In this document: positions 2,875-37,534 of the stretch, one piece after another
Position numbering within the stretch: the stretch's first letter is position 1
Layout: every line of letters begins with the position of its first letter
Virus record (IMG/VR): IMGVR_UViG_3300031867_000233
DNA length: 37,534 bases
From: a virus
Reading direction: 5' to 3' (one strand)
Program-made: the position numbers and the translations under genes
Notes under the pieces: model-generated
Database searches by the model: none
What the model saw: only the letters and a program-made list of their open reading frames with translations
Told to the model about the DNA's origin: nothing

Positions 2875-2939
2875 TTGGAAAAACGGCAAATTTCACGCTA
2901 TAATGTGATTAAAGCCGTTTTTATGTTTCAAAAAGAAAC
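2875..2939 (+). promoter_or_regulatory. Sigma-70-like promoter (TTGGAA 2875-2880, 18-nt spacer, TATAAT 2899-2904) followed by a perfect palindrome GTTTCAAAAAGAAAC (2925..2939)
   Basis: The hexamers were read directly. The palindrome is identical to the copies at 30975, 31965, 33349 and 34222. A second palindrome, TTTCACGTGAAA, lies at 2957-2968. Confidence 0.55.
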
Positions 2940-2985: not shown

Positions 2986-3831
2986 ATGAGAAAAGACTTT
3001 GCGTGTATCGTAATATCACATGGCAGACCTGAGTGCAGTACGGTAAAGGTGCTTCGTGATTGTGGTTATACAGGGAAAATCTATATCGTTGTTGACGATG
3101 AGGACAAAACGCTACCAGATTATGTCGAACGGTACGGGGCTGATGTTCATGTATTCCACAAAGAAGAAAACTTCGATACTGGAGACTTGGGTGGCAGTAA
3201 GGCATGTGGAGTGTTTGCACGCAACCAATGTTTGAAGGTTGCAGAGAAAAACATGCTGACTTACTACCTAGAACTTGACGATGATCTCGAAAATCTTTCG
3301 TACAGATATAACGATAACGGGCATTTAAGAGGAATCAAGGCTAGAGAGCTTGACAGGTTGTTGGATGGAATTTGTACTTATTTTGATGAAGCTCCTGTGC
3401 AGTGTTTAGGTTTCGGAAATGCCGTTGACTATATTGGTGGTGTTCCAACGTTTGAAAGTGGAAAAGCAAACAGGGCTGTCATGAATAGCTTTTTTCTAAG
3501 AACATCAAACAAGATTCAATGGCGAAGCAGATTTTCAGACGACATAATTACGGTTGTCGATGAAGCACAAAAAGGTCATGCAGGATTCAGATTCATTCCT
3601 GTTATGAGCACATACGATGTATGGATTCCAAAGCGAAAATCAAAAAGCAGTGGCGGTAGTATTGAGGACTATAACAAGATAGGTTCGTATAAGTTGAGAT
3701 ATTATGCTGTTATGTTTCATCCTGATTGCATAAAGATAAAAGAATCAGGAGATGGGTATGACTGGACTGTAGTATCTGAGAATGCATATCCTAAAATATT
3801 AAGCGGGCGATATAAGAAAGGCAGGGCGTAA
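2986..3831 (+). CDS. GT-A fold glycosyltransferase, paralog 1 (281 aa)
   Basis: GVFARNQCLKVAEKNMLTYYLELDDD matches the GT2/GT-A 'ArN..A....lDDD' nucleotide-sugar/DxD signature. It is clearly paralogous to 4603..5463, sharing SHGR, GVFARN, L.LDDD, DYIGGV and SFFL motifs. The RBS is aaaggtggtg. Confidence 0.7.
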   Translation: MRKDFACIVISHGRPECSTVKVLRDCGYTGKIYIVVDDEDKTLPDYVERYGADVHVFHKEENFDTGDLGGSKACGVFARNQCLKVAEKNMLTYYLELDDDLENLSYRYNDNGHLRGIKARELDRLLDGICTYFDEAPVQCLGFGNAVDYIGGVPTFESGKANRAVMNSFFLRTSNKIQWRSRFSDDIITVVDEAQKGHAGFRFIPVMSTYDVWIPKRKSKSSGGSIEDYNKIGSYKLRYYAVMFHPDCIKIKESGDGYDWTVVSENAYPKILSGRYKKGRA

Positions 3832-3833
3832 AA

Positions 3834-4613
3834 ATGGAAAGCAAAAAAATGAATATCGTTTACAAGAAGGTAAAGGACTTGATCCCGTATGAGAACAATC
3901 CAAGAAACAATGACGAAGCTGTTGACTATGTAGCAAACAGCATTAAAGAGTTCGGTTTTAAGGTTCCGTGTGTTGTGAGCGGTGACGGTGTATTGATCAC
4001 AGGTCATACAAGACTTAAAGCATGTAAGAAGCTAGGCATTGATGAAGTTCCGTGCATTGTTGCTGATGATCTTACAGAAGACCAGATCAAGGCGTTCAGA
4101 ATTGCTGATAACAAGGTATCCGAATACAGCACATGGGACAATGAAAAACTTGCTGAAGAACTGAGCGAAATCATGATTGATATGGGACAGTTCGGAGATG
4201 ATCTCTTCAAAGATGATGATACGATGGACGTTGAGCTTCCTGAAGAAGAAAATCCTTACAGCCAGAAAAAGCACATTCCACAGTATGAACCGACAGGCGA
4301 TTTTGTCGATATTATGGACTTGATTGATGATGAAAAGACGAACGAGTTAATTAAGGAAATCAAAGAATCTAATGTTTCTGAAGACCAGAAGAACTTCCTT
4401 ATCAAGTCGGCTTACAGGCATTTGAAGTTCAACTATTCAAAGATAGCTGACTATTATTCCAATGCTTCTGAAGAAATGCAGATTCTTATGGAGAAGTCAG
4501 CACTTGTCATTATTGACATTGATGATGCAATTGCAAACGGATATGTGAAGCTGACAAAGGTGGTACAGGACTTAATTGCTAAAGGTGGAGGTGGTGAAGA
4601 CGATGCGGAATAA
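3834..4613 (+). CDS. ParB/Srx N-terminal-domain protein with an uncharacterised C-terminal domain (259 aa)
   Basis: IPYENNPRNND...SIKEFGFKVPCVVSGDGVLITGHTRLKACKKLGIDEVPCIV is a ParB-like nuclease/CTPase-fold N-domain. I recognised no ParA, no methyltransferase motifs and no DPPY motif. Confidence 0.75.
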   Translation: MESKKMNIVYKKVKDLIPYENNPRNNDEAVDYVANSIKEFGFKVPCVVSGDGVLITGHTRLKACKKLGIDEVPCIVADDLTEDQIKAFRIADNKVSEYSTWDNEKLAEELSEIMIDMGQFGDDLFKDDDTMDVELPEEENPYSQKKHIPQYEPTGDFVDIMDLIDDEKTNELIKEIKESNVSEDQKNFLIKSAYRHLKFNYSKIADYYSNASEEMQILMEKSALVIIDIDDAIANGYVKLTKVVQDLIAKGGGGEDDAE

Positions 4614-5463
4614 AAGCTTTGCTGTATTTATTCTTTCGCATGGCAGAGCGAACAATATCAAGACAGTTAATATGTTAAAACGTTTTCGTTATACAGGCGA
4701 TTGGTACGTTGTCATAGACAATGAGGATGATCAAGAAGAACTGTACAGAAATGAGTTTGGCGACCATATCATTCAATTTGACAAGCGAGATTATGTAAGC
4801 AGAATCGACCTTGGCGATATGGACACAGACAGAAGGGTTGGCGTGTTTGCGAGAAACTTTATTCAAGATGAAGCAGAACGTCTTGGCTACGAATGCCACC
4901 TACAGCTTGATGATGATTTTTCTGAAATCTCAATCAGATATGCAGAGAACGATAAGCTACAAAGCATGATGGTCACTGACCTTGATACTGTATTTGATGC
5001 GTGCCTTGATTTATTTTTATCAACTCCGTTGACTGCTTTATCATTTGCATTAGCAAGTGACTACATTGGCGGTGTTGCAAATGACAGGTTTCAATCAGGA
5101 ATGTTCAGAAAAACAATGGGATCGTTTTTCTTAAAAGCAAAAGACAAAGTGAAATTTGTCATGCGCATGAATGATGATATAACATCATGTGTTTTGTATG
5201 GATCACGAGGGAAGCTGTTCTATAGCATGTCGAGCTTGCAGGTGATCACTCCTGCAACTCAGCATGATGCCGGCGGAATGACTGATATCTATAAAAAGAA
5301 TGGTACATATCGAAAATCGTTCTACAGTGTCATGTGCTGTCCTTCATTCGTAAAGGTTTCAGCCATGGGAATTACGGACTTCAGGATTCATCACGAAATC
5401 AGTTGGAATAATGCCGTGCCAAAGCTTCTGTCTGAAAGGTGGTGCAAGCATGAAAGATATTGA
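4603..5463 (+). CDS. GT-A fold glycosyltransferase, paralog 2 (286 aa)
   Basis: MRNKSFAVFILSHGR...GVFARNFIQDEAERLGYECHLQLDDD...DYIGGV...GSFFL is homologous to 2986..3831. The start is set at ATG 4603, after the RBS aaaggtggaggtggtg. It overlaps the ParB-like stop codon. Confidence 0.7.
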   Translation: MRNKSFAVFILSHGRANNIKTVNMLKRFRYTGDWYVVIDNEDDQEELYRNEFGDHIIQFDKRDYVSRIDLGDMDTDRRVGVFARNFIQDEAERLGYECHLQLDDDFSEISIRYAENDKLQSMMVTDLDTVFDACLDLFLSTPLTALSFALASDYIGGVANDRFQSGMFRKTMGSFFLKAKDKVKFVMRMNDDITSCVLYGSRGKLFYSMSSLQVITPATQHDAGGMTDIYKKNGTYRKSFYSVMCCPSFVKVSAMGITDFRIHHEISWNNAVPKLLSERWCKHERY

Positions 5464-6550
5464 TTATCTGATTATCGGTGCAGGGCTGAGCGGTTCAGTA
5501 ATTGCAAGTGAAATGACGTACAAGGGCTATAAATGCGTTGTTCTTGAAAAACGTGATGCTGTAGGAGGAAATATCAGAGATAAAGAAATCAGCGGAATAA
5601 ATGTCCATCTATACGGCCCTCATATATTTAGAACTAATGACATTGAAATATGGTCTTATTTAAACCTTTTCACTAGCTTTAACAGGTTCATCAATGAACC
5701 TATTGCAAATTACAAAGGCGAAATATATAACCTGCCGTTCAACATGAACACATTCTCTAAACTGTGGGGAGTTACAACACCTGAAGAAGCAAAACGAAAG
5801 ATTGAGGAACAGAGAGTACCGTGCGAAAATCCGAGGAACCTTGAAGAATATGTTCTGAATCTTGTAGGCACTGACATTTATGAGAAGCTTATAAAAGGAT
5901 ACACAGAAAAGCAGTGGGGCAAGACATGCAAGGAACTTGACAAAAGCATTATCAGGCGTATTCCGTTACGGTTCACGTACAACAATAATTATTTCAACGC
6001 AAAGTACCAAGGCATTCCCATTGATGGTTATTCTAAGACTGTAGAAAGGCTACTAGAAGGCGCTGAAGTGGTGACAGGGTATAAATGTTCATGCTCAAGC
6101 AAAGAGTGGCTAGAAAGAGCTAAAAACGTGGTTCTGACAGGTGCCATTGACGAGTGGTACGGCTATTGTTTCGGAACGCTGGAATATCGTAGCCTGAAAT
6201 TTGAAACTGAAGAATTGCAGGAAGAAAATCACCAAGGAAATGCGGTCGTAAATTACACCGATGCTAGAGTGCCATGGACTAGGATTATTGAGCATAAGCA
6301 TTTCACAGGAGTGCAGACACCGACAACAATTATCACGAAGGAATATCCGCAGAAATGGGAGCTTGGAAAAGAGCGGTACTATCCGATTGAGGATGAAAAG
6401 AACAAAGCACTGTATCAGAAGTACAAAGAGCTTGCAGACCGTGATGGATTGATCACAGTCGGAAGGCTTGCGGAGTATAAGTATTACGATATGGAAGATA
6501 CAATCAAAAGTGCATTAAAGGTGGCGAGAGAATTATGCGAAAAACAGTAA
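5450..6550 (+). CDS. glf: UDP-galactopyranose mutase (366 aa)
   Basis: MKDIDYLIIGAGLSGSV (FAD Rossmann GxGxxG), VLEKRDAVGGN, LYGPHIFRTN, NLPFNMNTF, and the C-terminal GRLAEYKYYDMEDTI. These are hallmarks of bacterial Glf as I remember them. The start is set at ATG 5450, after the RBS gaaaggtggtg. Confidence 0.85.
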   Translation: MKDIDYLIIGAGLSGSVIASEMTYKGYKCVVLEKRDAVGGNIRDKEISGINVHLYGPHIFRTNDIEIWSYLNLFTSFNRFINEPIANYKGEIYNLPFNMNTFSKLWGVTTPEEAKRKIEEQRVPCENPRNLEEYVLNLVGTDIYEKLIKGYTEKQWGKTCKELDKSIIRRIPLRFTYNNNYFNAKYQGIPIDGYSKTVERLLEGAEVVTGYKCSCSSKEWLERAKNVVLTGAIDEWYGYCFGTLEYRSLKFETEELQEENHQGNAVVNYTDARVPWTRIIEHKHFTGVQTPTTIITKEYPQKWELGKERYYPIEDEKNKALYQKYKELADRDGLITVGRLAEYKYYDMEDTIKSALKVARELCEKQ

Positions 6551-8578: not shown

Positions 8579-8636
8579 TTGATAAAAACGTGCAATTATG
8601 CTAATATATGCGTGTAAAAATGTTTCAAATAGAAAA
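8579..8636 (+). promoter_or_regulatory. Internal promoter-like element (TTGATA 8579-8584, 17-nt spacer, TAATAT 8602-8607) plus a degenerate palindrome copy GTTTCAAATAGAAAA (8622..8636)
   Basis: Read directly in the 82-nt terL-portal gap. Confidence 0.4.
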
Positions 8637-14442: not shown

Positions 14443-17276
14443 ATGGCATTAGGTGGAACGATTAAAATCAAGGGCGAAAGTGAGTACAGGCGAGCACTGT
14501 CACAGATCAAACAGAACTTGAGGGAAGTATCTTCCGAAATGAAGATCGTCACGAGCACATATGACAAGAATGACACAAGCACTGGAGCACTGGCGGCTAA
14601 GAGTGATGTTCTGACCAAGCGACTTGAACAGCAGAAAGCGAAACTCAACCTTGTTGCAGAGCAGTACAAGAAGTATGAGGAAGCTGTCAAGAAATCAGCC
14701 GATGAGCATGAACAGCTTGGCACGAAACTGGAAAGCGCAAAGGCAGAGCTTGAGCGCATTGGAAAGACAACCGGAGAAACAAGTGCTGAGTACGAGAAAC
14801 AGAAGAAGGTTGTTGATCAGTTGCAGTCTGAGTATGATGACAGCACAAAGGCACAGGATGTCAATGCAAAGTCACTGTCCAACCTCAAGATTGAGCTAAA
14901 TGGAGCACAGGCTGATGTAAACAAGACATCTAGGGAACTTGACAACCTAGGAAAGTCACAGGAGAAGACAAACGAGGGATGGACTGTCATGAAACAGGTA
15001 CTTGCTGACCTTGCTCATGATGCAATTCAGTCTGCATTCAATGGCATTAAGCAGTTAGGAAGTGCAATCATTGATACAGGCAAGCAGTCACTTGAAGCAT
15101 ATTCAAATTATGAACAGCTTGTCGGTGGCGTTGAAACATTGTTCGGCGCAGGAGGAAAGAGCCTAGAAGAGTATGCTAAAAGCGTCGGCATGAGTGCTGA
15201 CAAAGCAAAAGGGCAGTATGAAAAGCTGATGGGCGCACAGTCAACCGTACTTAAAAATGCGAACAATGCCTACAAGACAGCAGGGCTTAGTGCGAATGAG
15301 TATATGGACACTGTAACAAGTTTCAGTGCATCCCTCATTCAGTCGCTTGGTGGAGATACGGCAAAAGCCGCCAAGTATGCCAATACAGCAATCACAGACA
15401 TGTCGGATAATGCCAACAAGATGGGTACTGATATGTCATCATTGCAGAACGCATACTCAGGATTTGCCAAAGGCAATTACACGATGTTAGACAATTTGAA
15501 ACTAGGTAAAACCCACTATTGCCTAGTATAAACCTCGCGAAAACGGTGAAACCCTTTGAAATAAGGCGATACCGTGCGAAGCCCCTTAAAGGGGAACGTG
15601 TAACGACTATCGAAAACACACAAATATGTGGAAGTGAGTAGAGTACACGCAAGTGCGTGGAAGTGCGAGGTAGCCCAAACGGGTGAAAGAGATAGTCTAA
15701 TCTCTATAGTGATATAGAGCAGTTCCTAAGAGAACGGCATGAGATTAACGACCTCATGTGAATATAAATGTATGGTGGTACAAAGGAAGAAATGCAGAGA
15801 CTTCTTAAGGATGCCGAGAAGCTACCAGGGGCCATGGGACGAAAGTTCAATCTTTCCAATTATGCCGATGTGGTCGAAGCTATCCATCTTGTGCAGGACC
15901 ATATGGGAATCACAGGAACAACGGCAAAAGAAGCAAGCACAACTATTGAAGGTTCTACAAATGCGATGAAATCGGCATGGCAGAATTTACTCACAGGCAT
16001 GGCTGACGATAACGCCAATTTCGGAGAATTGGTCGGAAATCTGGTTGACAGTGTTACAACATTCGGAAAGAATGTGATACCAAGAGTACAGCAGATCATC
16101 AAGGGAATGGCGCAGGTGGCAACACAGTTGCTACAGGAAGTGGTACCGCAGATTGTTAAAGAAATTCCTCCGCTTCTGTCAGAAACACTTCCGATGCTGA
16201 TTGATGCACTGACAGCAGTGGGACAGAGCGTTATTCAGGTATTGCCGACATTAATGCCGATTGTTTCGGATGGGATTATGCAGATCGTACAGGGAATCAT
16301 TACACTGTTGCCAGAGTTCCTTAATGCAGGATTGCAAATGCTAACATCCTTGATACAAGGCATTACGCAGGCATTGCCACAGCTAATAGACATGTTGCCA
16401 ACAATCGTACAGCAGACAGCAGATGTAATCATTCAGAATTTGCCAACAATCATACAGGCAGGCTTGCAGTTGCTTGTTGCACTGATTAACGGTATTGTGA
16501 AGGCGTTGCCACAATTAATAGCCATGCTACCAACGATCATAGGGACAATCGAAGGAATATTAATAGCTAACTTGCCACTTATCATCAAAACAGGTTTTCA
16601 GATTCTTGTAGCACTGATAAAAGGCTTGATTCAGTCACTGCCACAGCTCATTGCATGGACACCACGAGTAATCAGGGCAATCGTAAGTGTTCTGGTTCAA
16701 AACTTGCCAAAAATGCTATCTATGGGTGGACAGCTTTTAGGATCACTCATCAGTGGTATTGGTTCAAAGATTGGAAACTTGGGCAGTGCAATTGGAAATG
16801 TTGCAACTAAAATCATTGACGGCATAAAGCACATACCAGGAAAGATGATCAAATGGGGCAAAGACATGATCCAGGGCTTGATTGATGGTATCAAGGGCAT
16901 GATTGGCAAAGTCGGTGACGCAGTTGGTGGAGTAGCCAATAAAATCAAATCATTCCTTCATTTCTCAAGGCCGGACGAAGGGCCTTTGGCTGAGTATGAA
17001 AGCTGGATGCCTGACATGGTGGAAGGAATGAGCGATTCCTTAAGAAAGGCAAGTCCAGAGCTTATTGACCAGACTAAGGCACTGGCACAGGGAATGTCCG
17101 ATGCAATGACTGTGAATGGCACTATAACAGGCACTGGCGTAGGATATGGAGGTTCATCCTTCGATTCAATGGTGTCAGCATTCAAGGATGCACTATCACA
17201 GGTCAAGATCGAGATGGACGACGAAGAAATGGGCCATTTTGTTGACAAAACGGTGACGAAACTGATTTATTATTAA
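14443..17276 (+). CDS. Tape measure protein, two exons (14443..15507 + 15771..17276, 856 aa after splicing)
   Basis: Joining ...MLDNLKLG to YGGTKEEMQRLLKDAEKL restores the conserved TMP motif NLKLGYGGT. It has a coiled-coil N-terminus and hydrophobic repeats (LPQLI..LPTII). Confidence 0.85.
15508..15770 (+). ncRNA. ORF-less group I intron (IA2, T4 td-like), 263 nt
   Basis: Exon 1 ends in U and the intron ends in G. P1 pairs cuaggu (15502-07) with gccuag (15521-26), including a U-G at the splice site. P10 pairs ccacuau (15512-18) with auggugg (15772-78). P7 pairs gacuau (15605-10) with auaguc (15692-97). A P9 hairpin cucuauaGUGAuauagag is present, and the 3' hairpin caugagAUUAACGACcucaug has the same loop I recall in the T4 td intron. 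Confidence 0.88.
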
Positions 17277-26743: not shown

Positions 26744-26844
26744 CGCAGAAAAAATATATTCGTTGCTGTTTGGATTGTATGCTGAACAGGAAAATCTCAA
26801 AATTGAATATGAGTTAGACAGCTCTTTTTTTTCGACAGATGGTT

Positions 26845-27186
26845 TCAATCAGAAACATTCTTGCTGTCAAGGTACAGTTTCATTATCTTCAGATACAGCT
26901 CGTCCTTCTCAGGTTCCGGAAGATCGTGAAACAGAGACTCGATGCGCAGTGTGAGGTCTGTTGCTTCATCATAGTTTGATGTATCAATGCCAAAATATGA
27001 AATGTCGATGCCGTATACTTCACAAAAACGTTTCAGAGTGGAAAGAGTCAGGGAACGTTTTCCAGATTCAATATTAGATATTGCAGGCCTTGAAAGCCCG
27101 ACAAGTTCAGCAAGTTCAGACTGTTTAAGATCACGGGATTTGCGCAGTTCTTTTAGTTTCCTTCCGATTGATTTGTTGTTGATCAT
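26845..27186 (-). CDS. cI-like repressor (XRE-family HTH, 113 aa)
   Basis: IGRKLKELRKSRDLKQSELAELVGLSRPAISNIESGKRSLTLSTL is an XRE helix-turn-helix. It is divergent from the Cro-like gene. Confidence 0.85.
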   Translation of the reverse strand: MINNKSIGRKLKELRKSRDLKQSELAELVGLSRPAISNIESGKRSLTLSTLKRFCEVYGIDISYFGIDTSNYDEATDLTLRIESLFHDLPEPEKDELYLKIMKLYLDSKNVSD

Positions 27187-27233
27187 TATTTTTACACCAC
27201 CTAAAAAAGTTTATATTTCGATGATAACATAAC

Positions 27234-27310
27234 GTTGCTATTTGAAACAATAAAAAAATAATCGTCTTTTGATGAAAAGTAATTGCAATTTGATGACAAG
27301 AGTTTATAAT
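27234..27310 (+). promoter_or_regulatory. Immunity-region control DNA: degenerate palindrome GTTGCTATTTGAAAC (27234..27248) and rightward promoter TTGCAA (27283-88), 16-nt spacer, TATAAT (27305-10)
   Basis: Read directly in the cI/cro intergenic region. The palindrome differs by one half-site base from GTTTC-N5-GAAAC. Confidence 0.55.
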
Positions 27311-27334: not shown

Positions 27335-27529
27335 ATGAAAAGAGCAGAACTGAAAGCATTCAGGATGTCAAAGGGATTCACTCAGAAGGATGTTGCAGAA
27401 ATGCTTGGAATATCAACGAGCCATTATGCCTGCATCGAGCAGGGAACGCACAATCCTTCTACAAAGATTGTCAAAGCGTTCTGCAAAGAATTTGGTAAGG
27501 AAAATGCAAATTTGATTATTGGGAGCTGA
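27335..27529 (+). CDS. Cro-like HTH regulator (64 aa)
   Basis: FRMSKGFTQKDVAEMLGISTSHYACIEQG is an XRE HTH. The ATG at 27335 follows the RBS aaagggggaa. Confidence 0.8.
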   Translation: MKRAELKAFRMSKGFTQKDVAEMLGISTSHYACIEQGTHNPSTKIVKAFCKEFGKENANLIIGS

Positions 27530-27533
27530 AAAC

Positions 27534-27656
27534 ATGTTTGACATCGTAGCAAAAATCGTAAAAAGCGGTAACGCAGAAGAATTAAGAGAAATCATTAAAC
27601 AGTACGAAATTGATGTTTCAAAAAGAAAGGAAAACAAGAAAAATGAAGGGATTTGA
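27534..27656 (+). CDS. Small hypothetical ORF (40 aa)
   Basis: The ATG follows gggag, and the ORF fills the gap between cro and erf. It is below the ORF-track cutoff and was translated by hand (MFDIVAKIVKSGNAEELREIIKQYEIDVSKRKENKKNEGI). Confidence 0.3.
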   Translation: MFDIVAKIVKSGNAEELREIIKQYEIDVSKRKENKKNEGI

Positions 27657-30612: not shown

Positions 30613-31011
30613 GTGTACAGAAAATATCATAATAAAAAGACTATTCTTGATGGCATCAAGTTTGACTCAAAGCTGGAAGCTGAACGATATGCACAGTTGA
30701 AGATCCTGGAACGTGCGGGAGTCATAAGGGAATTGGAATTACAGCCCTCTTTTGAGCTTTTGCCGTCATTCAGGAAGAATGGCAAAACATGGCGTAAAAC
30801 CGTGTATAAAGCCGATTTCAGGTACATTTTGTGTGATGGCGATATAACTATCATCGAGGATGTAAAAGGCTCTACAGCGGTAATTACGGACGTTTTTCGG
30901 TTAAAGCAGAAATTATTTGAATACAAATATCCAGAGTACACAATCAGCATCGTTACGAGCAAAGACGTCAAGAAGTTTCAAAAAGAAACGAAAGTCGGCA
31001 AAATGTGTTGA
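30613..31011 (+). CDS. DUF1064-type PD-(D/E)XK protein (putative Holliday junction resolvase)
   Basis: YHNKKTILDGIKFDSKLEAERYAQLKILERAGVIRELELQPSFEL matches the DUF1064 pattern. Confidence 0.7.
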   Translation: MYRKYHNKKTILDGIKFDSKLEAERYAQLKILERAGVIRELELQPSFELLPSFRKNGKTWRKTVYKADFRYILCDGDITIIEDVKGSTAVITDVFRLKQKLFEYKYPEYTISIVTSKDVKKFQKETKVGKMC

Positions 31012-31036
31012 CTTAATCACATTATGATGATAATAT
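30975..31036 (+). promoter_or_regulatory. Palindrome-promoter cassette A: GTTTCAAAAAGAAAC (30975..30989), 18 nt, TTGACT (31008-13), 17 nt, TAATAT (31031-36)
   Basis: Read directly. It has the same geometry as cassettes B-D. Confidence 0.65.
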
Positions 31037-31222
31037 TAAAGAGTAGAAAAAAGCTACACCACCTATTCAGTAACCGCCATTGCTGAATAGCAGTGAATGA
31101 AACTGAATAGGTACATGAACCGTATTGCATTAGGTTGGCGGACTTAATGTGATGCGGTTTTCTGTTATTAGAAAGGCAATAATATGACAAATTGTAAAGC
31201 AGAAAAGGAAGGAAATAAAAAC

Positions 31223-31963
31223 ATGAGCAAAGTAAAAGACGAGAATTATATCCACATACCCGGTTGGGCTGTTACAAGGCTAGGGCTGAAAGGAAACGAG
31301 CTTCTTGTGTATTCAATCATATATGGATTTTCACAGGATGGTGAGACAAGGTTCACAGGAAGCCTACAGTATCTTGCAGATTGGACAAATTCAACAAAGC
31401 AAAGCTGTATAAAATGCCTAAAGTCATTGGCTGAAAAAGGATATATCACAAAGTATGAAAAGATCGTGAATAGTGTAAAGTTTTGCGAGTATCAAGCAGT
31501 TAAACCTAATTCTATGGTAGTAAACAAAGTTGAACAGGGTAGTAAACAAAGTTCACATGGTATTAAACAAAGTTTAACGGGGGGTATTAAACAAAGTTTA
31601 CCTAATATACTAGATAATAATATACTAGATAATAATATAGATAATAATATAGGGGAAAACAACAACACACCGAAACCTGAGAAAAAGAAAAGATTTGTTA
31701 TTCCTAGTGTAAAGGAAGTTCAGGCATATTGCACAGAAAGAGGAAACAACATTGATGCACAGCACTTTGTAGACTATTACAGCGCAAGAGGATGGATGCT
31801 TGGAAAGAACAAAATAAAGGACTGGAAAGCATGCGTCAGAACATGGGAAAGGAACGACAGCTTCAAGCCACAGAAACAGCAGGAACATCCAGAACACCGC
31901 AAGTACGATCAGAATGGCTATGAGTCGGAAGAAGAACTCATGAAAATATTATACGGCAAATAA
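31223..31963 (+). CDS. Replisome organizer / replication initiator (winged-helix N-domain, conserved phage C-domain)
   Basis: IHIPGWAVTRLGLKGNELLVYSIIYGFSQDGE...SLQYLADWTN...CIKCLKSLAEKGYI is a replisome-organizer N-domain. The C-terminus reads VQAYCTERGNNIDAQHFVDYYSARGWMLGKNKIKDWKACVRTWE. An alternative start lies at 31184. Confidence 0.75.
   Translation: MSKVKDENYIHIPGWAVTRLGLKGNELLVYSIIYGFSQDGETRFTGSLQYLADWTNSTKQSCIKCLKSLAEKGYITKYEKIVNSVKFCEYQAVKPNSMVVNKVEQGSKQSSHGIKQSLTGGIKQSLPNILDNNILDNNIDNNIGENNNTPKPEKKKRFVIPSVKEVQAYCTERGNNIDAQHFVDYYSARGWMLGKNKIKDWKACVRTWERNDSFKPQKQQEHPEHRKYDQNGYESEEELMKILYGK
31516..31652. repeat. Iteron cluster / putative origin of replication inside the initiator gene
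   Basis: GGTAGTAAACAAAGTT occurs twice (31516-31, 31538-53) and GGTATTAAACAAAGTTTA occurs twice (31559-76, 31583-600). AT-rich tandem repeats ATATACTAGATAATA/ATATAGATAATA follow (31604-31652). Confidence 0.7.
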
Positions 31964-31964
31964 T

Positions 31965-32026
31965 GTTTCAAAAAGAAACAAAGTACAACAAAAAGTATTG
32001 AAATTACTTTCATATTATGATATTAT
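31965..32026 (+). promoter_or_regulatory. Palindrome-promoter cassette B: GTTTCAAAAAGAAAC (31965..31979), 18 nt, TTGAAA (31998-32003), 17 nt, TATTAT (32021-26)
   Basis: Read directly. Confidence 0.65.
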
Positions 32027-32057
32027 AATAATGCAAAGAGAAAAGGAGAACAAAAAC

Positions 32058-32285
32058 ATGAAAACATACGTAACATTAGCAGTAGAAAAAGGAACAGGAA
32101 GAAAGGTATTTATTGAAGCAGAATACAAAACAAAGAAAGCTTTTGCTTCAGACTTATACGGAAATGGTTATCACCCATACAGAGGAATTGTTGAAGAAAA
32201 ATCCATTTATGATGAATGGCTTAATACAACAAACGGAACGATTGAAGAACTTAGAGAAATCAAAAGAAAGAGAGCTAACAAATAA
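32058..32285 (+). CDS. Hypothetical protein (75 aa)
   Basis: The ATG follows the RBS aaaaggagaa. The TTG extension to 31998 would run through the promoter and was rejected. Confidence 0.55.
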   Translation: MKTYVTLAVEKGTGRKVFIEAEYKTKKAFASDLYGNGYHPYRGIVEEKSIYDEWLNTTNGTIEELREIKRKRANK

Positions 32286-32473
32286 TGAAAAGAAAAGAAT
32301 GCGAGAAGCAGATCAGAGACTTGATGATTCAGATTCGTGACGTTTACAGGAAGTACGATAAAGATGGAGAATATCTTAGCTTTGCCATAATTGACAACAC
32401 CTTAATGGCAAATAATATGTGTTATACAGACGATGCGGATCATCCGATTAACATATATTATGTTATCAAGTAG
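32285..32473 (+). CDS. Hypothetical protein (62 aa)
   Basis: The ORF is coupled to the preceding stop (TAATG). Confidence 0.45.
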   Translation: MKRKECEKQIRDLMIQIRDVYRKYDKDGEYLSFAIIDNTLMANNMCYTDDADHPINIYYVIK

Positions 32474-32503
32474 ATAAAAAAGAACATTGGAAGGACTGAC
32501 AGC

Positions 32504-33346
32504 ATGAAAAGCATAGATATTTTTAAGGATGAAGAACCAACAACAGAAGCGATACAGCGCATGCTTGCCACTTGTGATGATAAATCTGAATATATCAAAG
32601 ACAATATGATTTACTGCCGAAAATGCCATGAGCCACGGAGATTATGGCTGTCGGGATTCGGTGAATATGTTTCTGTTATGTGTTCATGCGATATTGCAGA
32701 GCGTGACAGGAAGGAAGCAGAGCAGAAAAGGCGTGAAAGACTGGAACAAATTGCAGGATACAGAAACACAGGCTATCCTGACAAAGAGCTTCAGAAATGC
32801 CGATTTGATCACGATGATCGCAAGTCGAAGAAGGCTAGCGATATGTGCAGGAATTATGCTAAACGGTTTGACGAGTTCAGTAAAACAGGTAAAGGTCTTA
32901 TTCTGTTCGGAGGAGTCGGAACAGGGAAAACATTCCTTGCCTCATGCATTGCAAATGAACTTATCGACAATGGCATACCATGTCTTGTCACGAATTTTGC
33001 ACGTATCATCAATACGCTTCAGGGAATGTATGAAGGAAAGCAGAAATACCTGGACAGTCTGAATGAGTTTGATCTTCTGGTCATTGATGATCTCGGGATT
33101 GAGCGAAACACGGAGTACGTAAACGAGCTGGTGTACAATATCATTGATGCAAGATACAGGAGCGGAAAGCCGATGATAATTACAACGAATCTTAAGTATT
33201 CAGACCTGTACCATACGGAAGATACAAGCAAAGCCAGAATATATAGCCGTATCATTGAAATGTGCCTACCTGTACTTGTCAGCGGAGAGGACAGAAGAAA
33301 AAACAAGATGCAGGACGCAAGGCTGATGGATATATTAAACAGCTAA
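32504..33346 (+). CDS. DnaC/IstB-like AAA+ helicase loader
   Basis: Walker A is LILFGGVGTGKTFLASCIANEL and Walker B is LLVIDDLGIE. A downstream ...ARYRSGKPMIITTN region and an N-terminal Cys cluster are present. Confidence 0.85.
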   Translation: MKSIDIFKDEEPTTEAIQRMLATCDDKSEYIKDNMIYCRKCHEPRRLWLSGFGEYVSVMCSCDIAERDRKEAEQKRRERLEQIAGYRNTGYPDKELQKCRFDHDDRKSKKASDMCRNYAKRFDEFSKTGKGLILFGGVGTGKTFLASCIANELIDNGIPCLVTNFARIINTLQGMYEGKQKYLDSLNEFDLLVIDDLGIERNTEYVNELVYNIIDARYRSGKPMIITTNLKYSDLYHTEDTSKARIYSRIIEMCLPVLVSGEDRRKNKMQDARLMDILNS

Positions 33347-33348
33347 AT

Positions 33349-33410
33349 GTTTCAAAAAGAAACGAAATACCGGAAAATGTATTGAAATCGCTTTCATAAT
33401 ATGATATTAT
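33349..33410 (+). promoter_or_regulatory. Palindrome-promoter cassette C: GTTTCAAAAAGAAAC (33349..33363), 18 nt, TTGAAA (33382-87), 17 nt, TATTAT (33405-10)
   Basis: Read directly. Confidence 0.65.
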
Positions 33411-33441
33411 AATAAGCGTAAAAGGAAAGGAAGAAACAAAC

Positions 33442-33879
33442 ATGAAAAAATTAGCAGAAACATTATTGAACTACTACAAGGAACACGAGGACGACTTCAA
33501 TCATGACATCGAGGAACTGGACAGCTGGAACGGAATCCTCGGAGACAACCGTATTGAGGATATGGACATTCTTGATGAGATTTACCAAGGTACAGAGGCT
33601 ACCGAGATCCTGAGACGTGCGTATTTCGGGCATGACGATGATACATGGCACGAGGAAAATGGAGAAAAAGTCTACGGCGAGTTCAATCCGAACCGTGACT
33701 ATTTCTACTTTAACGGATATGGAAATTTGGTCAGCACAGATTATAAAGACTACAGTGATTATCTTGATCTTGATTATGTGCAGGACATCGTAGACAATTA
33801 TGGACATCTTGACCTGAGCGTTTGGGCACAGGAAATCATCGACAACTATGACGAGGACGGTGACAGCAATGAGAATTAA
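33442..33879 (+). CDS. Highly acidic hypothetical protein (145 aa)
   Basis: A hand count gives about 44 D/E versus about 9 K/R residues. It is the first gene after cassette C. Confidence 0.6.
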   Translation: MKKLAETLLNYYKEHEDDFNHDIEELDSWNGILGDNRIEDMDILDEIYQGTEATEILRRAYFGHDDDTWHEENGEKVYGEFNPNRDYFYFNGYGNLVSTDYKDYSDYLDLDYVQDIVDNYGHLDLSVWAQEIIDNYDEDGDSNEN

Positions 33880-34189
33880 GACATGGAACATTGAAGAAAT
33901 GACAGGATATACACCTAGAACAACATTCTATGAGGACTTCAGCATTGCAGACAATTTCGGTGTTCTTGCAATTCGAGATACGTATTGCAGAGCGTTCAAC
34001 GCATGGCAGAACAACATTGAATACATGACAGAGCTTGTAATGGTTCTGAATTGGAAGATCTGGGAGCATCACAGAAGTAACTACATGATCGCAGGAATGT
34101 ATGCCGATCTTTGGCGAGAAGCTGACCAGTGGGTAGTTGACCATTTCGATGGTGATGATCTTAAGTATTACATTAGAACAACGGACTAG
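33869..34189 (+). CDS. Hypothetical protein (106 aa)
   Basis: ATG 33869 overlaps the preceding stop. A terminator follows the ORF. Confidence 0.55.
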   Translation: MRIKTWNIEEMTGYTPRTTFYEDFSIADNFGVLAIRDTYCRAFNAWQNNIEYMTELVMVLNWKIWEHHRSNYMIAGMYADLWREADQWVVDHFDGDDLKYYIRTTD

Positions 34190-34207
34190 GAAAACCTAGT
34201 CTTTTTT
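34185..34207 (+). terminator. Rho-independent terminator
   Basis: ACTAGG-AAAA-CCTAGT followed by CTTTTTT. Confidence 0.7.
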
Positions 34208-34221
34208 ATTGAAAAAATTAT

Positions 34222-34283
34222 GTTTCAAAAAGAAACAAAATGCGGTAAAAGGTATTGCAATTTTTACCATATTATGGTATTAT
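34222..34283 (+). promoter_or_regulatory. Palindrome-promoter cassette D: GTTTCAAAAAGAAAC (34222..34236), 18 nt, TTGCAA (34255-60), 17 nt, TATTAT (34278-83)
   Basis: Read directly. Confidence 0.65.
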
Positions 34284-37407: not shown

Positions 37408-37534
37408 CAAAAGTAGCGTTGTGGATGTCAGCATCCTATACGGTAGAGGCGAAGTGGACACGCCTGTAAGAATAAGGATTGCCTGACTTGTCAGGTGGAA
37501 ACTTAAATATCAAACTTCTTAAATAGAACCGTCA
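37408..37534. repeat. Terminal direct repeat, copy 2
   Basis: Exact copy of bases 1-127. Confidence 0.95.

Follow-up and report, generated by a model that had tools for sequence, protein, structure and literature searches.

The virus record IMGVR_UViG_3300031867_000233 of IMG/VR, which is 37,534 nucleotides (nt) long and is referred to here, as a whole, as the window, carries in its early region four promoters, P1 to P4, each of which is preceded by a copy of the same 15-mer, GTTTCAAAAAGAAAC (hereafter the box). Exact copies begin at 2925, 30975, 31965, 33349 and 34222, all of them on the + strand, where base composition predicts about 2e-4; the view taken in an earlier note on this DNA, that five such copies lie far beyond chance, is therefore sound. 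The four copies of the early region are arranged, together with the promoters that follow them, as listed below.

30975..30989, + strand: box copy 1, GTTTCAAAAAGAAAC, within the 3' tail of the DUF1064 open reading frame (ORF; 30613-31011)
30990..31036, + strand: linker and P1 (TTGACT 31008-31013, 17 nt, TGaTAATAT, -10 at 31031-31036)
31965..31979, + strand: box copy 2, 1 nt past the DnaD-like stop codon
31980..32026, + strand: linker and P2 (TTGAAA 31998-32003, 17 nt, TGaTATTAT, -10 at 32021-32026)
33349..33363, + strand: box copy 3, 2 nt past the DnaC/IstB-like stop codon
33364..33410, + strand: linker and P3 (TTGAAA 33382-33387, 17 nt, TGaTATTAT, -10 at 33405-33410)
34183..34202, + strand: intrinsic-terminator-like hairpin and T-run, ahead of box copy 4
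34222..34236, + strand: box copy 4, 32 nt past a stop codon and 19 nt past the terminator hairpin
34237..34283, + strand: linker and P4 (TTGCAA 34255-34260, 17 nt, TGgTATTAT, -10 at 34278-34283)

The pattern made up of the 15-mer, 18 nt, TTG, 17 nt and TGnTA is found four times in the window and in none of 100 shuffles. The -35 hexamers (TTGACT, TTGAAA, TTGAAA and TTGCAA) are paired with -10 hexamers that read TAATAT or TATTAT, and a promoter scan gave P1-P4 scores of 9-10 of 12, plus the TG of an extended -10 element in four of four. The spacings and hexamers that had been described thus hold exactly, as does the rigid phasing: in all four cassettes the centre of the box lies 26 nt ahead of the -35 hexamer, or at about -61. 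Across box and linker, A-tracts begin every 10 bp, at cassette positions 6, 16 and 26. Each cassette is a conserved composite of a strand-specific box (core TTCAAAWAGWAA), an 18-nt linker and a near-consensus sigma-A promoter with an extended -10 element. The placement relative to the preceding genes is less regular than had been proposed, namely three copies within 0-3 nt of a stop codon. This is true of the copies at 31965 and 33349 (1-2 nt), while the copy at 30975 is inside an ORF, the TGA stop of which falls within the P1 -35 hexamer, and that at 34222 stands 32 nt away.

The box also occurs apart from such cassettes: between cistrons, in 5' leaders and in the switch region of cI and cro. 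The core TTCAAAWAGWA occurs seven times on the + strand, the sites at 8622 and 27615 included, and not once on the - strand of the window, against about 0.14 expected per strand, and four variant copies accompany the exact ones, so that the sites outside P1-P4 are the following.

2925..2939, + strand: box copy 5, exact, 20 nt downstream of the -10 of a TTGGAA-18-TATAAT promoter (2875-2904)
8622..8636, + strand: variant box GTTTCAAATAGAAAA, between terL and the portal gene
26842..26856, + strand: variant box GTTTCAATCAGAAAC, at the 3' end of the cI gene, arms intact
27234..27248, - strand: O1, box-like GTTTCAAATAGCAAC, inverted, in the cI-cro intergenic region
27615..27629, + strand: variant box GTTTCAAAAAGAAAG, promoter-less, at the end of a 41-codon ORF just before the ERF start

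Because the end of the window repeats its first 127 bp (an identical direct repeat, 1-127 and 37408-37534), the window represents a whole phage genome of about 37.4 kb, circular or with overlapping ends. A serine integrase gene and a cI-like gene on the - strand are succeeded by a Cro-like gene and then by genes for ERF, an exonuclease, SSB, NinB and DUF1064. P1, through a long leader, faces the DnaD-like initiator gene (31184-31963); P2 precedes small ORFs and the gene for a DnaC-like loader, P3 two ORFs and a terminator, and P4 ORFs without assigned function. Holin, lysin and HNH genes come next, followed by a promoter with a box ahead of TAGT, ParB_N, TAGT and Glf genes, and finally by the terminase, a box, the portal, and the head and tail genes. 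The virulent Lactobacillus delbrueckii phages c5, LL-Ku, phiLdb, Ld3, Ld17, Ld25A and PMBT4 have a TerL with 77-78% identity to that of the window, and the c5 genome shows synteny with it, so that a Lactobacillus-like Firmicute is the probable host.

In IMG/VR, scans with the exact pattern and with protein anchors yielded about 45 contigs of the same family (35-39 kb), and about 40 family loci were picked through the DnaC-like protein, the box not being used as a criterion. These loci hold 169 box copies with no more than two mismatches, all of them on the transcribed strand and at syntenic positions; a counterpart of copy 1, for example, is found in nearly all. Positions G1, T2-4, C5, G11, A12-14 and C15 are near-invariant, and variation is mostly central (AAAAA, AAATA, AAAGA or AATCA). 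When distances were anchored on the promoters rather than on the box and unique contexts were counted, the box stood 18 nt from the -35 hexamer in 112 contexts, 8 nt in four, and 28, 19 and 17 nt in one each. In the resulting consensus, A.GTTTCAAAaAGAAACaAAA..cg..AAAA.GT.TTG...T.......aTat.ATGaTA.tAT, hardly any variation is seen in the box, in two linker A-tracts, in a GT dinucleotide or in the promoter elements, and six central linker positions vary freely with no change in linker length. Judged by this comparison, the cassette is a real, conserved regulatory unit. It is absent from 185,579 GTDB representative bacterial genomes, which gave only 62 unrelated single random matches. A general host promoter element is unlikely for that reason, and a host-wide element or host transcription-factor site was rejected.

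The modules between the cassettes are mosaic in the family, and the DnaD-like gene, p32058 and the part from p34329 onward are not conserved. A linker without regulatory role, conserved where modules join and homogenized by recombination among mosaic phages, would fit the exchange of these modules among family members, and the deletion end-points of cI-less variants do adjoin the O1 box. Nevertheless, an invariant box, a free linker core and a fixed length indicate selection on function, a related box is found in a distant phage group with unrelated flanks, and the box was selectively lost in cI-less relatives that retain promoter homology. Such a passive origin appears very improbable to us.

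Several sites without a cassette are equally well kept. The copy at 2925, conserved in the family, is followed by an 18-nt A-tract linker and then by a parS-like palindrome (2955-2971) that replaces the -35 hexamer. The copy at 8622 is retained in all family loci that span the terL-portal region; it lies 14 nt after a promoter (TTGATA at 8579-8584, 17 nt, TGcTAATAT with its -10 at 8602-8607) and precedes the portal ribosome-binding site (RBS) and GTG start. The variant at 27615, the last bases of which contribute to the ERF RBS, is shared by 23 family loci, and promoter-less family copies exist in which an RBS and a start codon come immediately after the box. The neighbourhood of the 2925 copy has further features of its own. 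A family-conserved inverted repeat, AAAACGGC ... GCCGTTTT (2880-2921), encloses the -10 TATAAT (2899-2904) of the promoter ahead of this box. The parS-like palindrome, TGTTTTCACGTGAAACA, precedes genes for a TAGT glycosyltransferase, a ParB_N protein, a second TAGT and a UDP-galactopyranose mutase (2986-6550), and family members carry GTTCCACGTGGAAC in its place, which is a symmetric change; this segment may form a module for DNA glycosylation that has a regulatory site of its own. The ParB-like protein (3834-4613) was considered as a binder of the box, the arms of which equal the outer arms of parS, with a near-parS palindrome after the 2925 copy, and was rejected; it is encoded in only about 18 of the approximately 45 family contigs, within the TAGT/Glf DNA-modification module.

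A second set of phages (group 2) consists of distant relatives with a GC content of 27-30%, on contigs of 40-55 kb, whose DnaC-like protein is 31% identical to that of the window. They carry a related but asymmetric box, GCTTCAAATAGTAAA, and intermediate variants connect the two types. The sequence atGCTTCAAATAGTAAA is present in 4-13 copies per 16 kb in a single orientation, most copies lying 0-25 nt upstream of an RBS and often right after a hairpin. Five independent classes of promoter are located downstream of the group-2 box, at offsets of 6, 7, 7, 18 and 27 nt. Phasing was examined with family offsets of 8, 18 and 28 nt and with offsets of 6, 7, 7, 18, 27 and 29 nt from non-homologous group-2 promoters. 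In both groups, the distances between the box and the -35 hexamer place the box on one helical face (Rayleigh R 0.90 for a 10.5-bp period), with permutation p values of 0.002 for group 2 alone and 8e-5 overall, the pooled figure being somewhat generous, as the family 17- and 19-nt classes derive from the 18-nt class.

The description of the box as a perfect palindrome did not survive this analysis. Its reverse complement is GTTTCTTTTTGAAAC, and the 5-bp arms GTTTC/GAAAC flank a non-symmetric AAAAA; the full dyad symmetry expected of a palindromic operator for a helix-turn-helix (HTH) dimer is thus confined, in the window, to these arms, and the group-2 box has no dyad symmetry at all. The arms do bear on a quite different idea, that the box acts as RNA (as a hairpin like boxB, or as a signal for processing or translation where cistrons meet). 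The 15-mer can fold into a 5-bp stem with a 5-nt loop, it is strand-specific, it usually comes after a stop codon or a hairpin, and its position close to the RBS in group 2 would suit such a role. But the hairpin is weak (-2.2 kcal/mol versus -7.9 for lambda boxB), its pairing register is conserved neither in group 2, where no common hairpin register can be drawn, nor among the subtypes, and the arm variants are mostly non-compensatory. Moreover, no sense transcript would include the O1 copies that lie upstream of P_R, and the fixed helical phase relative to the -35 hexamer argues for action on DNA. The stable, conserved stem-loop downstream of early promoters that characterizes nut/boxB sites is not seen here, where four copies are upstream of their promoters. 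An RNA-level function is accordingly most unlikely. Three further candidates were rejected: a mini-ORF (MFQKETK...) whose ATG start overlaps the box (only about half of the copies have this ATG, and the linker variation is not synonymous); pairing with the 3' end of 16S rRNA (by inspection, 5-6 nt only and absent in group 2); and a promoter for sigma-A, an alternative sigma factor or a phage RNA polymerase (no conserved partner element and no RNA polymerase gene).

The genes of the switch region supply the candidates for a protein that binds the box.

26845..27186, - strand: cI-like repressor, 113 amino acids (aa), with an Xre/HTH_3 domain and a short helical C-terminal part
27335..27529, + strand: Cro-like HTH protein, 64 aa, from P_cro

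The recognition helix of the cI-like repressor is LSRPAISNIESGKR, and its matches in PDB are to generic Xre proteins only. O1 overlaps the putative cI promoter across its -35 and spacer and is situated 34 nt upstream of the P_cro -35 (TTGCAA 27283-27288, 16 nt, TATAAT 27305-27310), a promoter with no box at the usual upstream position; it is flanked by the 26842 copy at 392 bp and by the 27615 copy at 381 bp. This interval also contains three direct repeats of TTyGATGAnAAs (27217-27228, 27268-27279 and 27289-27300), which flank the P_cro -35 and cover the putative cI -10; they are family-conserved, and their GATGA/GATTA variation is concerted.

Homologues of the 113-aa Xre-type cI are present in both phage groups (37-41% identity over the full length), Cro homologues in part, and further loci were gathered by anchoring on the cI homologues. 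In 23 of 23 loci whose cI has the helix LSR[P/G/S][A/Q][I/V]SN[I/L]E with no insertion before it, the box is enriched on the lytic strand (3-13 copies versus 0-2). Immunity regions were read in six lineages outside the family (L261/L395, L281/L387, L255/L399, L385, L393 and L402), and every one has a box copy beside the cI start, in the cI-cro intergenic region. This switch copy is located 27-29 nt upstream of the P_R -35 in L385, L402, L393, L261 and L406, and the cro leader holds one or two copies in most lineages. Because L406 has the switch copy and no dispersed ones, the switch operator is suggested to be the ancestral use of the box. In addition, box and cI helix appear to covary: SRPA is found with GTTTCAAAWAGAAAC (...AGAAAC), SRPQ with GTTTCAAAWAGTAAA (GTTTC...AGTAAA), SRSQ with GTTTCAAATAGTARA (GTTTC...AGTARA), and SRGQ with GCTTC or TATTC...AGTAAA. 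Together with the loss of boxes in phages without cI, described next, the switch copies and this covariation favour the proposal that a cI-like protein binds the box and that the sites serve as 'stoperators' in the lysogen.

Natural loss was seen in the virulent relatives. A megablast search of the window early region against isolated phages gave no match; the c5 group surfaced through protein-level and 'distant' searches. Its seven virulent L. delbrueckii phages are syntenic, have neither cI nor integrase, and keep 4-8 homologous cassettes each, consisting of a terminator, a AAAAAGTG-TTGACw linker and -35, and a TGTTATATAAT extended -10. In the deposited records of c5 and LL-Ku these appear as promoters P1-P6 and terminators T1-T8, and the box has no annotation. 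Allowing one mismatch, the box is found four times in c5 (before each of P2, P3 and P4 and once at a site with no promoter, P1 being without it), twice in Ld17, twice in LL-Ku (each with one mismatch), once in PMBT4, and not at all in Ld3, Ld25A and phiLdb; homologous promoters without a box persist in the last four and in LL-Ku. From this decay in a cI-less group it follows, at the level of the comparison, that the promoter is independent of the box, that an intact Cro does not preserve the box, and that upkeep of the box accompanies possession of cI.

The second of these points bears on the possibility that the box is an operator of Cro alone, or one shared by cI and Cro, through which Cro would shut off cI at O1 and lower the early promoters late. 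A copy of the box overlaps the putative cI promoter in both phage groups, as does OR3 of lambda, and all lineages, c5 included, have a Cro homologue with an SHY/QHY helix. LL-Ku, with few boxes, has a frameshifted Cro helix; relative to c5 and Ld3, the frameshift in the Cro-like ORF (1365-1640; L427) runs across the recognition helix. On the contrary, Cro is intact in Ld3, Ld25A, phiLdb and PMBT4, three of which have no box and the fourth a single near-copy, and group-2 Cro helices differ (ATSFFCL, ATSHYSL and TRQHYSD) while the box stays constant. The Cro-like protein is therefore disfavoured as the binder, and an operator of this kind is improbable. For an AbrB-like binder, which had also been suggested, no supporting evidence was obtained: the 62-aa ORF 579-767 has no Pfam or PDB match and no group-2 homologue. 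About 450 bp of non-coding DNA (128-578) lie ahead of this ORF, and a terminator and the holin promoter region come after it.

The earlier note had given prominence to a class I activator position. On this reading, a phage protein bound at -61 would recruit RNA polymerase through the C-terminal domain of its alpha subunit (alpha-CTD), and P1-P4 would be delayed-early promoters. Box centres at about -51, -61 and -71 do fall on the classical class I faces, and the absence of a box from P_cro and from c5 P1 makes a cascade from P_cro through Cro to the boxed promoters conceivable. Nonetheless, these promoters come close to the consensus (TTG is invariant, the spacer is 16-17 nt long, and TGnTAnnnT and an upstream A-tract are present) and should not need an activator; in Ld3, Ld25A, phiLdb and PMBT4 the promoters persist and Cro is intact, with the box lost or nearly lost; and members of the temperate family with cI deleted are complete genomes. 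Promoter-less copies and those in 5' leaders would also be left unexplained. What is found is thus a site on one helical face, without the weak core promoter of class I activation and without a need for the site wherever the promoter is kept, and activation must be considered unlikely.

A further alternative dispenses with a phage factor altogether, the box being a cis-acting upstream (UP) element, or bent DNA with phased A-tracts, that is read by the alpha subunit of host RNA polymerase. As in UP elements and phased A-tract DNA (rrnB P1; Bacillus and Clostridium promoters), whose function depends on the helical face, A-tracts with a 10-bp phase extend from about -40 to -63, and the helical phasing between box and promoter is preserved. 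Phased A-tracts near -43, -54 and -65 are said (by Helmann, in 1995) to be typical of strong Gram-positive promoters, and the region upstream of c5 P3 (-57 to -41, AAAATTTTTATCAAAAAAA) matches, in register, 16 of 17 positions of the E. coli UP consensus, reportedly from the work of Estrem and colleagues in 1998. The box differs from an UP element in that its G/C positions are invariant beyond what the alpha-CTD requires, while other linker positions drift. Phased A/T tracts are found at about -40 to -60, but occurrence at promoters only, with drift elsewhere, is not, the box being present also without a promoter, in 5' leaders and in the switch region. Besides, most of it lies upstream of -58, beyond the canonical UP window, and the c5 group keeps the promoter and the proximal A-tract and loses the box, which is thus dispensable in relatives. 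We regard this explanation as doubtful.

Loss of cI is also seen within the temperate family. In eight loci from the same metagenome (L144, L167, L165, L137, L153, L161, L148 and L171), changes are found in cI, the integrase or the cI-cro interval: cI and/or the integrase are deleted, the two are fused, or an insertion sequence (IS) lies between cI and cro. They are probably virulent derivatives. Boxes are still present in temperate-family members with a recent cI deletion or IS disruption.

Other features of the window are recorded here. The P1-DnaD leader (31040-31183) contains a 20-pair hairpin (31117-31160), its start (agagtag..ctacaccacctattcagt) is conserved in many family members, and an Rfam search of it gave no match at the gathering threshold. 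Within the DnaD-like initiator gene, iterons at 31516-31651 (a 22-bp unit, GGTAGTAAACAAAGTTTAACAG, repeated 3.8 times, followed by an AT-rich 15-bp unit repeated 3.5 times) mark a probable origin of replication. The tape-measure gene is interrupted by a group I intron (Rfam RF00028, 71 bits) at 15468-15719 on the + strand, and the phrog_58 tape-measure profile is divided between ORF 14443-15531 (profile positions 177-466) and ORF 15768-17276 (positions 467-1028).

Among known systems, the stoperators of Cluster A mycobacteriophages (bound by L5 gp71 or the TipsytheTRex repressor) are present in many copies, between genes and at the immunity promoter, with an orientation that tracks transcription, and they are kept in repressor-deleted derivatives of L5-like mycobacteriophages (PMC9283540). 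The box resembles them in copy number (five exact copies and four variants in the window, and the 4-13 per 16 kb of group 2), in its location in short intergenic spaces, near start and stop codons and at the promoter of the immunity region, in its orientation (7/7 core matches on the + strand and 169/169 in the family, with the inverted O1 as the exception) and in its retention by recent cI-deleted family members. It differs from them in that the repressor here is a 113-aa Xre-type (HTH_3) protein rather than a 183-aa two-domain monomer, that sites are fewer (7-9 per genome, group 2 apart), and that four copies precede promoters, with which they keep a fixed helical phase, instead of lying downstream. 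Stoperators are asymmetric sites; of the two boxes here, that of group 2 is asymmetric and that of the window has 5-bp dyad arms. Given the differences in repressor type and in phased placement upstream of promoters, membership of the stoperator family cannot be claimed from these sequences.

The SAS/ESAS repeats of Cluster K mycobacteriophages, whose binder is not known, are likewise asymmetric, in one orientation and just before gene starts in the non-structural half of the genome, and SAS contains a Shine-Dalgarno core, 3-7 bp from the start codon (PMC3203893). Group-2 boxes, 0-25 nt upstream of the RBS, are similarly placed; unlike SAS, the box is distinct from the RBS, may stand ahead of an entire promoter and is present in the switch region. 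There is also a likeness to c5 and LL-Ku (genus Cequinquevirus), where homologous genomes have an early region partitioned by homologous cassettes (AAAAAGTG-TTGACw ... TGTTATATAAT) and where c5 carries the same box ahead of P2, P3 and P4; unlike the phage of the window, these two are virulent, lack cI and integrase, and have every promoter after an intrinsic terminator, and the box is mostly lost in five of the seven isolates of this type. Further afield, the conserved inverted repeats of phiC31 (CIR operators of the c repressor; Ingham and colleagues, 1994) and the asymmetric multi-copy operators of Bacillus phage phi105 (Van Kaer and colleagues, 1988-89) are reportedly highly conserved copies of a repressor operator between genes of the early region, beside repeated early promoters. 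Their hosts, repressor families, site sequences and promoter types all differ from those considered here.

Taken together, the comparative data lead us to read the box as a dispersed, stoperator-like operator of the phage's own cI-type repressor, by which internal promoters would be silenced in the lysogen; we put the probability of this reading at roughly one half. The box would be the DNA site of the 113-aa Xre-type cI, and the operator of the switch region would have been copied, in the lytic orientation, to every boundary between transcription units. In the lysogen, repressor bound at about -61 would hold the otherwise constitutive P1-P4 off, and with them the replication genes and other early genes. 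Because the box stays on one helical face (offsets of 8, 18 and 28 nt), the repressor may contact or trap RNA polymerase, or block its contacts with the UP-like upstream A-tract. A possible precedent for the mechanism, by analogy and with no homology to the system of the window, is p4 of phage phi29, which is said to bind upstream of the strong A2c promoter, a class I position, and to repress it by retaining RNA polymerase via the alpha-CTD (Monsalve and colleagues, 1997). At promoter-less boxes, the bound repressor would be a roadblock to read-through, as at stoperators. During lytic growth the boxes would be empty and the promoters would fire. Cro may share the site, though the data favour cI.

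A number of observations weigh against a cI operator. No box overlaps the core of P_cro in the window, and -61 is a non-standard position for repression. The TTyGATGAnAAs repeats look like candidate classical operators for cI and/or Cro, distinct from the box. The apparent covariation comes from about four to five lineages and is confounded with phylogeny, and the lack of dyad symmetry in the group-2 box is odd for a small dimeric Xre protein. Furthermore, L386, L406 and L407 have the SRGQ helix and no dispersed copies, and c5 retains four boxes without cI.

A wider formulation, that the box represents a counterpart of stoperators in phages of Firmicutes, is more tentative, and at present we hold it to be rather unlikely as a whole. 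According to it, a small Xre/SinR-like repressor would silence consensus sigma-A promoters from -51, -61 or -71, perhaps by trapping RNA polymerase or masking UP-element contacts, and would block read-through at promoter-less boundaries, with a box that co-evolves with the recognition helix in at least two uncultured groups and decays after loss of the repressor.

Dispersed operators are a design known from other phages, and the box would represent a new form of it; the promoters themselves were already annotated in c5 and LL-Ku. Searches of the literature for the box as a string found no paper that mentions it. The annotated promoter cassettes of c5 and LL-Ku are, in this light, remnants of a larger regulatory unit. 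If cI does bind the box, the phage of the window would be a compact example of how a temperate phage keeps many strong internal promoters silent as a prophage, and the variants of helix and operator would form a natural series in which to follow the evolution of immunity specificity in phages of gut and dairy Firmicutes. The cassettes may then also serve as short, portable, repressor-controlled strong promoters for the engineering of Lactobacillus or Clostridia.

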